Position numbers and translations under genes: made by a program. DNA of 63,423 bases, the filler included, from Squatina squatina (taxonomy: Eukaryota), in assembly GCA_031763465.1 (NCBI GenBank). It is 3 parts of 2 records of this genome, joined end to end, with 100 filler letters (N's around TTAATTAATTAA, not from the genome) between each part and the next. Parts side by side here need not be neighbours in the genome. Positions count along the whole stretch, not along the records: positions 1 to 27,221 come from JARFOE010000234.1; 2 more parts are not named here. The stretch is one strand, 5' to 3'. The notes beneath the pieces are model-generated. The model was given only the letters and a program-made list of their open reading frames with translations. It was not told where the DNA came from and made no database searches. Below are positions 9,769-39,538 of this stretch, piece after piece (position 1 is the first letter of the stretch; every line of letters starts with the position of its first letter).

Positions 9769-10091
9769 TCATGGTTGGCATGTTCTTTCAATATCCCAAT
9801 GGTTACAGCCCCTTTTGCAGCATTTGTCTGAAAGTGAAAGGGTTCTTGGTGTCAATTTTGCATGGATGAAATCTTTTGGACGAGCGGGCTGCATCACGCT
9901 GTCTCTCTCAGTCTCAGAGACATACTCATTAAAATCATCTGACATCTGCTCATGTGTGTAGTCATTGTAAAACGGTTGTTGTCCATAATACGACTCAAGC
10001 TGTTCAATCCCGTCGTTGTCAAACCTCCTCTGAACCTTCTTCATGTTCGTCTCCTTGAAATAGTCATTATCATCTGAGGCCTGGAAGGGAA
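9769..10091 (-). CDS. Relaxin/insulin-like peptide, copy A, exon 2 (C-peptide plus A chain)
   Basis: Phase-1 acceptor, then PFQASDDNDYFKETNMKKVQRRFDNDGIEQLESYYGQQPFYNDY...AKLTPRTLSLSDKCCKRGCNHWDIERTCQP*; exact CC-X3-C-X8-C A-chain motif; lies in the CD274-JAK2 interval (RLN locus). Confidence 0.9.
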
Positions 10092-10860: not shown

Positions 10861-10868
10861 TATAAAAG
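10861..10868 (+). promoter_or_regulatory. Candidate TATA box of relaxin-like copy B
   Basis: TATAAAAG 240 nt upstream of the signal-peptide ATG at 11101. Confidence 0.45.
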
Positions 10869-11100: not shown

Positions 11101-11263
11101 ATGGAGAGTCTGGTGTTCATCTTGGCAATCGGGCTGTTGCTGTTCTCCTTTCCAGGCTCTGCAAGGCCTGATGATGAGGTGATAAAGCTCTGCGGTCGAG
11201 CCTTCGTAGAAAAACTTATCCAACTCTGCATAAATCTGAAAGCTCGCATTCACCATCCATATG
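11101..11263 (+). CDS. Relaxin/insulin-like peptide, copy B, exon 1 (signal peptide plus B chain)
   Basis: MESLVFILAIGLLLFSFPGSARPDDEVIKLCGRAFVEKLIQLCINLKARIHHPY, then a phase-1 donor G|gtaagt; hydrophobic signal and IKLCGR-X9-C B-chain motif; too short for the ORF track. Confidence 0.9.
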
Positions 11264-11751: not shown

Positions 11752-11850
11752 ACGTTGTGACAGCCCCATAACCGGCTTTTGTGATGTCACCCCGGGTGCG
11801 TAGGAACATCATTCCCACCCGGAGAGATCGCAATTTCAGCACCATCAACT
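11752..11850 (-). mobile_element. MITE end fragment (same family as 13836-13989)
   Basis: Reverse complement of 13836-13925 (cagccccataaccggcttttg..atgtc.cccgggtgc...ggagagat.gcaatttc). Confidence 0.6.
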
Positions 11851-12302: not shown

Positions 12303-12532
12303 ATCTCTCCCAGACCTCAGATTATAATGACTACTTCAAGGACATGGACATGAACAAGATTCGAAGGATATATGACAATGACAGGATTCAGCAGCTTGAG
12401 ATGTATTATGGACAGCAACCATTTTACAATGAGTACACCCAGTATGGGCAGACGCCAGATGATTTTAATAAGTATGCCTCTGAGACTGAGGGAGACAGCG
12501 TGATTCGTCCAAGAATGTTGAATGGAAAATAA
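12303..12532 (+). pseudogene. Relaxin-like exon 2 paralog with C-peptide only; stops before any A chain (truncated gene or pseudogene)
   Basis: Phase-1 acceptor, then (D)LSQTSDYNDYFKDMDMNKIRRIYDNDRIQQLEMYYGQQPFYNEYTQYGQTPDDFNKYASETEGDSVIRPRMLNGK*; aligns to copy A up to DSV..RP; no CC-X3-C-X8-C in any downstream frame I read. Confidence 0.75.
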
Positions 12533-13577: not shown

Positions 13578-13835
13578 TTGATTTCTAGAACACAATGCTG
13601 TACCAAATGGTTCCTTTTTTCGCTAGGCCATTGATTGAGCTTATTTACAGGTTCGGTGAACTTTCACTTTTTATCAACAGTTGGACTTGTGTGCACAGTT
13701 CCTGTTCAAGGGAGCCATAAGATTGGAATTTAACTTTACAAAGTTAAATTCTCCTCCTTTGCGCCCTACCTCAGATGTACAAGTGTATTCCATTCCATTT
13801 ACTGGAGCTGTACTTGGGTAAGGAGAGGATATAAT

Positions 13836-13989
13836 GGCCCCGAAATTGTAATCTCTCCGGGTGGGACCGATTTCCCAGGCACCCGGGGAGACATCGCAAA
13901 AGCCGGTTATGGGGCTGTTAATCGTAAGCCCGTATAACCGGCATTTGCGATCTGTCCAGAAACTGTCCAGATTGCTTAGAACGGTCAAA
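13836..13989 (+). mobile_element. MITE end fragment
   Basis: ggccccgaaatt terminus; shares sequence with 11752-11850 and a gcgatctgtccaga motif with 22429-22614. Confidence 0.55.
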
Positions 13990-14786: not shown

Positions 14787-15668
14787 CAGACTTGCATTTA
14801 TATGTTCGATCAGTAGAGGAGGGGGAAAGGAATAAAAGGATATGCTGATCGGGCGAGATAAAGCAAGGTGGCAGGAGGCTCATGTGGAGCATAACCACCG
14901 GCATAGACCAGTTGGGCTGAATGGCTTCTTTCTGTGTGTGATGTAAATTTTATGTAGTATTAATACAGCCCAAACTCATTTCTCATAGTGACTCTTACAG
15001 CCAGCAGTGAGCAGACTGACTGGCTCAGATGAATGTAATGAGAATCTCCTCCCTTTGTCAGCTGTAAGTTCATGCATGAATTAAGCTGTACGCCCTGGAA
15101 ACTACTGCAATCTCGAAAGGACAATAAGAAGAATATTTGAAACATTAAAAGGGAAGAGAATCAATTAGCATATGAAAAATAATAGCAGCTAACAAATATC
15201 CGCTTTCAAAATACAGACAATACAGATTACTCTCTCCAAACATAATTTCTGCAATTCAAATGAGTTGAACGATTTGGGACAACACTACGGAGAGAAAGAC
15301 AGCAATCTGAAATATATCTGGTGCAGCCACTCCGAGCCTCTGTGCGTCACCTCACTAGCTACAGTGCTGCTCTTCACATTCCAATAGCGGAGAAATGCCA
15401 TTTTATTTCACTTGCTGCATACAAGTTGATGACTCCCTGTAAACCCCAATAAGGTTGTACAAGTCACACCATTATGCACTTCTATAATGTCTATGTCTTC
15501 TACTATAATACATCGCTGCACATTATAGGAGTTTTTAACTAAATGGCAACAATAACCACAGGGGTGTTTCTGAGCTTTTGATTGATAAATAATTACTTCA
15601 AAGAATACTTGAACTAACTGCACACTGTTTTTATAACTGCATTTAACCCATTTTGCAAACTACAGCTA

Positions 15669-15869
<201 letters not shown>

Positions 15870-16046
15870 TTATTGAAGAGAAATAGCAGAAAACCAGTTG
15901 GCATTTAAATGAGCGATACTGCGAAAACTACCAAAACCCACCAATTAGACAAATATAAGAACGCACTATAATAAATAGTCAGGGCCTGCAGTGAATATCC
16001 TCTATACGCAATATAGCAAGATTCGTGAACTCCAAACCATATTTCA

Positions 16047-16223
<177 letters not shown>

Positions 16224-16380
16224 TCAGACAGTCACAAAAACATAACATATTCAACCATCACAACCTGAGCTATTCTGCTATCTTGCCCAAACTTAAAATG
16301 GATCCGTGTGGTTCCGTGCACAGTGGTGCTTCAACATGCTGTGTAAACAAGTGATAGGACTTGAGCTTGTACTGGTAACT

Positions 16381-16665
16381 TCCTGAACTCAATGGTGTCA
16401 GTGATGTGCATTCCCTGAACTCGATAGTGTCAGTGTTTTCCATTCCTGAACTCGATGGTGTCAGTGCTGTGCGTTTGCTGAACTCAATATTATCAGTGCT
16501 CATCATTCCCTAAACTCTACATTGTCAGTGCTGTGCATTCCATGAACTCGATAGTGTCAGTGCTGTGTTTTCCATGAACTCAGTATTGTCAGTGTTGTGA
16601 GTTCCGTGAACTCAATAGTGTCACTGTTGTGCATTCTCTGAAGTTGATAGTGTCAGTTCTGTGTG
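16381..16665. repeat. About 32-bp minisatellite in a JAK2 intron, about 9 copies, running into a gap
   Basis: Unit approximately cctgaactcgatagtgtcagtgctgtgcattc; spacing 31-32 nt. Confidence 0.85.
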
Positions 16666-16765
16666 NNNNNNNNNNNNNNNNNNNNNNNNNNNNNNNNNNN
16701 NNNNNNNNNNNNNNNNNNNNNNNNNNNNNNNNNNNNNNNNNNNNNNNNNNNNNNNNNNNNNNNNN

Positions 16766-16914
<149 letters not shown>

Positions 16915-17369
16915 TTACAGACGACAAGCAACAAATATTTACTGATAACAGAATATAAAACTAAAATTACATTAATCACAAAACATTACAACACAACCGC
17001 TAAGAGACGGTAAAAAGCATGGGCTTTCTGATTACTGGGGAACAAATTTGAACACATGGACTATTGACGATTGGTTTAACCATAGTATTTGAATAAAGCA
17101 AAATCTCTCACATACAAATAGGTTATTTTGACTTCTGCATGAAGTTAAAGATACCTAAAAATGCTGCCTCTTTAATACCTTCCTATGCCTTGGGCCCCAT
17201 TCCAATAGAGACCATATTCAATTTCAGGAGTTCTCCTCTTATCTCTGGCCAACACTTCACATAGGTGCTTCCTTTGCTGAATAATCAGAGAGATATCTTG
17301 TGATGCTCCAGTCAAAGAGAATACTGACCTACATTATTCACAAGATAATTACAGATAAGGAAGGCTATT

Positions 17370-17571
17370 TCGCTCATCTTAATTCATCTATCCAGAGAGA
17401 TCCTTGGGTCCCGTCTATTGCAGAATCCAGTTGTTTCTTAAATGATTCCAGAGCTTTTGTCTCCAACACTCTATCCAGAAGTTTTATCCATGCATTGATC
17501 ACATTGTGTAAGATTAAATTCCCATTATGAATCCTAAAATTACCGTTTACTACCTTAAACCCCTGTTGTCT
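17370..17571 (-). mobile_element. CR1-like LINE 3' fragment
   Basis: HNVINAWIKLLDRVLETKALESFKKQLDSAI is a degenerate version of the CR1 ORF2 C-terminus. Confidence 0.6.
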
Positions 17572-17841
17572 NNNNNNNNNNNNNNNNNNNNNNNNNNNNN
17601 NNNNNNNNNNNNNNNNNNNNNNNNNNNNNNNNNNNNNNNNNNNNNNNNNNNNNNNNNNNNNNNNNNNNNNNCTTTGAGCAGGTCCTCGTGGAGTCACTTG
17701 TGTCAGCATGAGGAAACTGCCAAATAAACATAACTACAAGAACTGTAGTTAAATCCAATTTTGAAGTTTGGCAGTTTCCTATGGAAGACACAGCTTGCTC
17801 AACTTGTCAGGATCTTGTGGAGGAAGGGAAGGAAAACCACA

Positions 17842-18469
17842 GAGGCAATTTCAACCTTTTCCGCCCGGAGGGCAGTTAAAATTGTCCGAGAAGACTTATC
17901 CACTGACATCCCATTCCCTTCGCCATAGACTTCAATTTTAACCAGCTCTGCTGAGCAGGCAGGAATGGGCTTCTTTAAATATGCAGATCGGGCTTTGATG
18001 ATGTCATCAGGGCCCGACTGCTATTTTAACTCATGGCCTGATTTGGGAATCCGTCGTGGTTTCCTCTGCCAGGTGAAACCAGCAGGATAAAGAGTCGGAG
18101 CCAGAAGAGGCCCACACAGGGGTAAGTTCTTAAACTTTCCTTGTAGGGCCAGGAAGAGCAGGAGTGCTCCCCCGGGCCCCAAAAAGGAATGTTTAGACAT
18201 CCCCTGTCCCGGGCTCCCCCTTCCTGATCGCAAGGCCCTGTCGGAACCCCCTCACTGCGACTTACCTGAGTGCCAGGAAACATTCCTTTGGTTCCCCGCC
18301 GGTGGCCTCATGCCACCCAGCATTCCTCTGCCACCCACCACTTTCGGGCAGGCAACTGACCAGGAACAAGCAGATGAGGCCCCGTGAGTTACAAATCACA
18401 CTGCCGAAGCAAGGACCGTTTGCTACTCGCCTCGGCTCCCCTGTCCACTTCGAGTTAAAACTGGGGCTC
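17842..18469. mobile_element. GC-rich non-autonomous DNA element (relatives at about 51020-51541 and 56715-56945)
   Basis: Inverted ends caatttcaac...gttaaaactg; shared motif gggccaggaagagcaggagtgct (cf. 51331-51355); boundaries approximate. Confidence 0.5.
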
Positions 18470-18637
18470 ACACCTCTGAATCTGTGCACAAGTCAGAAGA
18501 ACATCTCCTTGGGCCAGAATGTCTGCATAGTGCCAATCAATGAGTAATAAAAACAGTAGAATTTGGAGCCAGTAACTGTCCAACCATTACATTTAAATCT
18601 AAAAGGACTGACTATTTTTGGTTAATGGAAACATCAC

Positions 18638-18824
<187 letters not shown>

Positions 18825-38872: not shown

Positions 38873-39538
38873 ATATTTGTTGTAACAGTGCGGAGTTTTT
38901 GTTTATGCAGGGAGGTGCAGGTCATATATTTTCAAATTTTAAAAATGCATTCCTAAGAGATATTTTAAGAAGATGATTCTCGTGATCAAAAATCTATTCT
39001 TTCAAACCATTCAAAAAATTAACAGATTTCAATTAAGCCCAAGGAGAGTGAATGAATTATCAAATTTCCATACAACTCCTATATGTTTTGATCCAGTACA
39101 GTGCTCTGTAGCTGTTACCACTCATAGAATAGTCAGCTGGAGTAACTGGAGCACAATTGCAGATATCAGATAATTCATGGTTTAGAAAGTCATCTGAACC
39201 CCAAGATTGTGTTACAACCTGACAATGCAGGTGATCAAACATACAACCTCTGCTTTTCCATGTGTGATATGTTCTTCTTACACTGACTCCAAGTTATACC
39301 ATTCAGATATACTGTTCTGCTGTTGTCCCCACCAAGCTGTACTGTTCAGTCATAGCACACTAAAATAAAATGATAAAACAGCAGCAAGAGGGAGACTTAC
39401 ACTTGTTAAGGGATATCTAGGTCTCACACCCTTTAGTATTAGTGTTGTAATTATTTATATCTGGTAACTGAGGAGATGACATGAATCACTTTTCTAAATA
39501 TCAGCAAAGTAATTGCAATTTCTGTTTGTCTTTTCCAG

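Follow-up and report, generated by a model that had tools for sequence, protein, structure and literature searches.

The window, by which we mean the whole 63,423-nucleotide stretch of Squatina squatina DNA analysed here, carries on its minus strand the IgV and IgC exons of CD274/PD-L1 (7262-8753; PD-L1 E=5e-24) and exons of JAK2 for the SH2 domain, the pseudokinase domain and the kinase C-lobe (15720-18821, recognised by homology), the two genes that flank the RLN locus. Between them, on the plus strand, lies the coding part of exon 1 of a relaxin-like paralogue that encodes a signal peptide and a B chain without the relaxin receptor-binding cassette (11101-11263; identified by sequence, alignment and tree), situated beside JAK2 and towards CD274 in an order read from a gapped scaffold. 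JAK2 serves as the marker of the RLN locus RFLB in the available text of PMC2805637, and the relaxin-family gene of exon 1, with PD-L1 on one side and JAK2 on the other, is at the RLN locus. The scaffold is collapsed and gap-rich, with 39 runs of N (mostly of 100 N) among 40 contigs of median length 1490 bases, and its distances, orientation and completeness are unreliable. Exon 1 is oriented opposite to JAK2, which we take to be the human arrangement. Canonical RLN was not seen within the window; we infer that S. squatina retains it, since catshark and elephant shark both keep a cassette-bearing RLN.

Several other features of the locus deserve mention. We considered whether the gene is nested in a JAK2 intron and rejected this, as the visible JAK2 exons reach no further than about 15.7 kb. 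Of these, the penultimate kinase exon (15720-15833, minus strand) matches human JAK2 (E=1e-12) but has alterations at usually conserved residues, clustered in its 3' half and including the Cys-Pro near its end, which may mean that the exon has truly diverged, that it is a duplicate in decay or that the assembly is at fault; the window showed no final JAK2 exon. The same 63 kb also holds an SH3GL2-like last exon (28587-28835) and ADAMTSL1-like exons (41.9-47.8 kb), both named by eye, and a tandem repeat (38400-38930) that gives many spurious Cys-Gly matches on translation. Decayed transposon-like frames were noted by eye at 5.1-5.8, 54.9-55.2 and 19.6-20.1 kb, two of them resembling Myb/SANT-type Harbinger proteins and one a LINE reverse transcriptase.

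The coding part of exon 1 begins with an ATG at 11101, with an in-frame stop a short way 5' of it, and a putative TATA-like box, read from sequence only, lies ~240 bases 5' of the start codon (10861-10867, plus strand). The ATG is followed by a hydrophobic leader, by eye a signal peptide, and then by the C-G-x10-C spacing of superfamily B chains, with Cys codons at 11191 and 11227. When the register is set against the human relaxin-2 B chain, Arg-B13 (CGA, 11197) and Ile-B20 (ATC, 11218) of the cassette are retained and Lys-B18 is at 11212, while the cassette's second Arg, at B17, is replaced by a Glu codon (GAA, 11209-11211, plus strand). A phase-1 donor, G/GTAAGT at 11263/11264, closes the exon. 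The initial annotation had described an intact signal peptide, a B chain with both cysteines and a Glu in place of the second cassette Arg, and the frame and coordinates agree with it on each. It had also read the usual C-terminal CGGSRW as replaced by CINLKAR: the GGSRW tail is indeed absent, but a chain end at KAR has nothing behind it, because exon 1 contains no dibasic site and its frame runs five residues past KAR to the splice donor, so that the B chain need not end there. N-glycosylation sequons are absent (0) from exon 1 and from both of the exon-2 candidates described below.

Taken alone, exon 1 is a weak member of the family (Pfam Insulin E=0.17, below the cut-off; PDB relaxin B chain E=0.23), and its top match in the Atlas is an insulin-family cluster (0.91). 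Three proteins found via a different exon, a 62-residue record (P0015), catshark scyTo_0006113 (P0012) and whale-shark XP_048451220.1 (P0006), match it within the window at E=1e-19, 2e-16 and 5e-15, respectively. With relatives at E-values down to 1e-19 and a location between PD-L1 and JAK2 exons, exon 1 is not a chance resemblance. Word-index protein searches with exon 1 and with exon-2 candidate A as queries returned no matches, and an exact look-up of four window translations in the protein collection found 0/4.

The gene plan is one of two coding exons with an intron early in the C-peptide, and the exon 1 donor and the acceptors of two exon-2 candidates are all phase 1. Candidate A (9769-10091, minus strand; identified by sequence and motif) encodes a C-peptide and an intact A chain with the motif CC-x3-C-x8-C, whereas candidate B (12303-12532, plus strand; identified by sequence and identity to A) encodes a C-peptide that runs into a stop at 12530-12532 before any A chain, and the A-chain motif is absent from its contig in all six frames. 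Exon 1 and the two candidates lie on three separate contigs, A on the strand opposite to exon 1 and B on the same strand. The candidates are 84% identical across 555 nt, intron included; between them dN/dS is 0.59 over 64 codons and dN (0.16) exceeds the intron divergence (0.13), which on these small numbers points to weak constraint. Both better match the paralogues P0001, P0002, P0003 and P0005, while the best relatives of exon 1 are P0015, P0012 and P0006; in an exon-2 tree P0006 and P0012 are paired (96/93) with the window's candidates outside, although a sister relationship between the candidates and that pair is not rejected (p-AU=0.264). The sequences thus suggest that the window holds pieces of up to three paralogues and that the true exon-2 partner of exon 1 has been lost in a gap. 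A further A-chain-like match (15240-15341; E=0.06) was rejected, as it is interrupted by a stop, has no third Cys and lies directly behind a JAK2 exon. Candidate B is flanked by an inverted pair of 86-base repeats, 86% identical (11760-11845 and 13834-13918), probably members of a small transposon family.

A HMMER search with candidate A as the query recovered 12 proteins, 11 from sharks or skates and the twelfth clustering with a skate protein, and a four-sequence profile gave 7 matches among 942 candidates, 4 of them new, including the canonical catshark and elephant-shark relaxins and mouse INSL6; no stingray protein was among the matches of either search. Of 20 relatives retrieved, we set aside two near-duplicates (P0018 and P0019) and two proteins with no B chain (P0010 and P0021) and looked for a B-chain core in the other 16. 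The core was present in 14, and only the two canonical relaxins among them (P0014 and P0016) have the cassette. The 12 that lack it are 10 named elasmobranch proteins, the 62-residue record and mouse INSL6.

In an exon-1 tree of 11 rows, from which three long-branch rows were omitted, the window exon and eight other paralogues form a clade (95/97) separate from catshark and elephant-shark RLN, and forcing the window exon to group with catshark RLN is rejected (p-AU=0.000125); with the three long-branch rows included, the tree has no starred branch. By path length, the nearest relatives are P0006, P0015 and P0012. Strict orthology within this subgroup is only likely, because its support is 88/88 and it also contains a bamboo-shark protein without Arg-B13. 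P0006 and P0012 are both full-length, intact precursors that score above the Pfam Insulin cut-off and contain the A-chain motif CC-x3-C-x8-C. On the evidence of these alignments and trees, the window gene is a member of an elasmobranch clade of cassette-less RLN duplicates and not the shark's relaxin. The picture implied by the initial annotation, of a relaxin that has shed its cassette, gives way to one of a duplicate standing apart from canonical RLN, which persists with its cassette in catshark and elephant shark.

Locus tags of the paralogues are adjacent in catshark and in bamboo shark, which suggests that RLN paralogues form tandem arrays in sharks, and in catshark the canonical RLN and three divergent paralogues are probably on one chromosome. 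The catshark canonical relaxin, the likely parent gene, is represented by four accessions with two slightly different sequences (P0014/P0018) and may itself have been duplicated. Some of the gene models are unusual. P0002 (catshark XP_072373718.1) has four overlapping or successive B-chain-like Cys cores followed by one A chain, which might be repeats of a B module or an artefact of the gene model; P0004 (skate XP_055488220.1) has several long tandem repeats inside its C-peptide; and P0007 (catshark XP_072373335.1), in which a relaxin exon 2 is fused to what by eye is a retrotransposon-like N-terminus, is probably a mis-annotation.

The altered face of the B chain is shared by the nearest relatives. 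Position B17 is E, E, D and E in the window, whale-shark and catshark proteins and the 62-residue record, respectively, acidic in all four, and the same four proteins have in common an R-x-x-HPY tail and a basic residue at B27. Thirteen of the 28 positions between B7 and B34 are invariant in this set of only four proteins (K9, L10, C11, G12, R13, F15, K18, L19, C23, R29, H32, P33 and Y34), and K18 is present in 8 of 11 non-canonical relatives, as opposed to Ala in both canonical RLNs. Conservation of the Glu and of the tail in orthologues had been proposed as a check on the initial annotation, with Arg in the orthologues as its refutation, and the change proves not to be private: Arg-B17 is kept in 0/3 of the closest relatives, and the tail is common to them. 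Because the acidic B17 and R-x-x-HPY extend across all four, the charge reversal and the tail are old and shared.

An AlphaFold model of the whale-shark protein P0006 is confident in its B and A segments (pLDDT 85-92 by block) and contains the expected B helix, unbroken over residues 35-53, and two A helices, with an overall pTM of 0.38 and the C-peptide unmodelled. Foldseek with this model gave no match at E<=0.001, only matches with E>5, and structure neighbours in the Atlas are insulin-family proteins with TM<0.5. No dibasic pair follows the B chain of P0006, and in P0012 the first is at the C/A junction; the mature B chain is therefore predicted to be long or uncleaved.

What is known of the receptors of this family, from work on the human proteins, can be set against these residues. 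According to the available text of the studies concerned, human relaxin-2 binds through its Arg13 and Arg17 to acidic residues in the LRRs of RXFP1 (bioRxiv 10.1101/2022.01.22.477343; PMC4561518), INSL3 needs Arg16, Arg20 and Trp27 (PMC4561518), and RXFP4 requires a terminal Arg-Trp with a free carboxyl, relaxin-3 without its C-terminal end becoming an RXFP3/4 antagonist (PMC9886975). The window peptide has R-E-I where the cassette has RxxxRxxI/V, and it does not provide a relaxin-3/INSL5-type B chain ending in Arg-Trp, since exon 1 encodes neither a Trp nor a dibasic site. In an alignment extended by register, the INSL3 residues His12, Arg16, Val19, Arg20 and Trp27 correspond to Arg, Glu, Ile, Gln and Ala. 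Because the peptide lacks the RXFP1, INSL3 and RXFP4 residue sets, classical agonism at RXFP1-4 is unlikely by rules drawn from human receptors, in keeping with the earlier expectation that it would not act as a classical relaxin.

We consider it most probable, at roughly 60%, that the window gene is an RLN duplicate at JAK2-CD274 with the B face of its shark counterparts, encoding a secreted orphan peptide that would fall short of classical RXFP1-4 activation and would act, likely in the reproductive tract, through another receptor. This reading takes up the observed exon anatomy, synteny, clade apart from canonical RLN and conservation of the altered face, and a secreted orphan with a new binding face is the most likely product. 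Tandem duplication of RLN would have freed the copies while the parent retained the cassette, and the subgroup would then have fixed a new B-chain surface in which the basic residue is shifted from B17 to B18 and, as predicted for the whale-shark protein, the Gly-Gly helix break gives way to a helix that runs on. As a dibasic site is missing behind it, the mature B chain may stay long or uncleaved and would offer no free terminal Trp. A reproductive role is probable by analogy with INSL6 and a peptide from male stingrays, and is the weakest step. A stronger version of this idea seems to us rather unlikely: that these genes constitute an ancient, conserved, RLN-derived subfamily of sharks whose receptor lies outside RXFP1-4 and possibly touches the insulin/IGF system, the new face consisting of the acid at the insulin-B13-equivalent position, Lys-B18, and an extended helix with an HPY end, with little or no B/C cleavage.

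Other explanations were weighed against this one. If exon 1 were spliced to 12303-12532, it would encode a B chain and a C-peptide but no A chain, and because no A chain is made the product could not form the insulin fold; the gene would then be a decayed copy in S. squatina. In favour of this, candidate B shares the strand of exon 1, occupies the contig next to it and has a compatible phase-1 acceptor, its stop and no A-chain motif, and exon 1 lies opposite JAK2 as in human, which suggests that contig orientation is somewhat informative. Yet exon 1 is free of lesions and keeps all 13 residues invariant in the subgroup, and it and the exon-2 candidates differ in their best relatives, with P0006 and P0012 paired to the candidates' exclusion, so that a gap may hide the true exon 2, even if that exclusion is not significant. 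Decay would also leave the Glu, which predates it, unexplained, and we hold this reading to be doubtful. Unlikely, too, is an RXFP1/RXFP2-type agonist at a co-evolved shark receptor, in which Lys-B18 or the basic tail would stand in for Arg-B17. The retention of Arg-B13 and a hydrophobe at B20, the invariance of R13, K18 and R29 with a basic B27 in all four proteins, and the prevalence of K18 in non-canonical relatives where both canonical RLNs have Ala are consistent with it; the persistence of full-cassette RLN, however, should keep the acidic patch of the receptor fixed, and by the human-receptor rules an acidic B17 would confront those acids.

The acid at B17 might instead be read as the regaining of an insulin feature, with B/C cleavage lost as in single-chain IGF, which would make the peptide a modulator of insulin/IGF receptors. 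Relaxin B17 and insulin B13 share one profile column, a position occupied by Glu in insulin and by Asp in IGF, and the dibasic pair is missing after the B chain of P0006 and before the C/A junction of P0012. But insulin requires a Gly-Ile-Val start of the A chain, a Tyr before its last Cys and an aromatic B24-26; candidate A, P0006 and P0012 have A chains with neither of the first two, and the aromatic triplet is absent. The family profile also places relaxin, INSL3 and INSL5 chains above insulin, and a stingray peptide described in 1997 reportedly failed to bind the insulin receptor, so that we regard such a role as very unlikely. Still less can be said for a peptide that naturally blocks relaxin receptors or serves as their decoy, antagonism being an option raised in the initial annotation: truncated relaxin-3 sets a precedent at RXFP3/4 (PMC9886975) and Arg-B13 is kept here, but an antagonist must bind, and the residues lost are those of binding, one Arg having its charge reversed and the equivalents of INSL3 Arg16, Arg20 and Trp27 being missing. 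Finally, in an assembly as fragmentary as this one (39 N-runs, median contig 1490 bases), the Glu could in principle be an error or a private mutation in an ordinary relaxin; three independent relatives, however, also have an acid at B17 (E, D and E) together with this tail, grouping with canonical RLN is rejected, and the probability of such an error or mutation is close to nil.

Duplicates of the relaxin locus that lost the cassette are already known in mammals as INSL4 and INSL6. A separate shark and ray expansion, one subgroup of which has a distinct B face in at least two shark orders, would indicate that this locus repeatedly yields orphan peptides, could supply a gene family for the 1997 stingray peptide, and names residues for study (the B17 acid, K18, R29 and HPY). 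If the ancient-subfamily reading were true, sharks would offer an independent second origin of vertebrate orphans of the INSL4/INSL6 kind and, by comparison, a way towards their receptors. The elasmobranch expansion to which this conserved cassette-less paralogue belongs is apparently undescribed in the open-licence literature, in which we found no account of an expansion of the shark RLN locus; subscription papers and supplements may cover it, as may a 2014 review that reportedly follows relaxin evolution from jawless fish to mammals. The stingray precedent, and the fact that databases already contain gene models for the counterparts, limit the interest of the case.

Those counterparts, whale-shark 'prorelaxin-like' XP_048451220.1 and catshark scyTo_0006113 (GCB71920.1), are the closest known systems, with exon-1 identities to the window of 57% and 52%, and are known as database gene models alone. 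They share with it Arg-B13, the acidic B17, Lys-B18, R-x-x-HPY and the tree subgroup; they differ in having Leu at B20, where the window has Ile, and an exon-2 C-peptide shorter than in either window candidate. In 1997 Bullesbach, Schwabe and Lacy reportedly described a glycosylated relaxin-like molecule of the Atlantic stingray, from male fish. The likeness drawn here is with the description of that molecule, and the stingray peptide is glycosylated whereas the window exons lack an N-glycosylation sequon. The available text of PMC551602 gives its B chain as lacking the relaxin motif and calls it 'not a functional relaxin'.

The mammalian INSL6 and INSL4 are, like the window gene, tandem duplicates of the RLN locus beside JAK2. 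As far as the available text of the sources goes, they arose through local duplication at that locus in mammals (PMC3310001) and their receptors are unidentified (PMC10828710). Because of this local mammalian origin, we infer that they represent a parallel event and are not orthologues of the window gene. Mouse INSL6 resembles the window gene in retaining Arg-B13 while Arg-B17 is gone and B18 is substituted, but its B17 is Ile and not acidic. The likely parent gene of the window paralogue is the canonical relaxin of chondrichthyans (catshark 'prorelaxin H2-like' XP_072373348; elephant shark V9LCU5/XP_007890199): the two are similar in signal peptide, Cys spacing and C-peptide, but the canonical protein retains RxxxRxxI and CGGSRW, and the window gene has neither.
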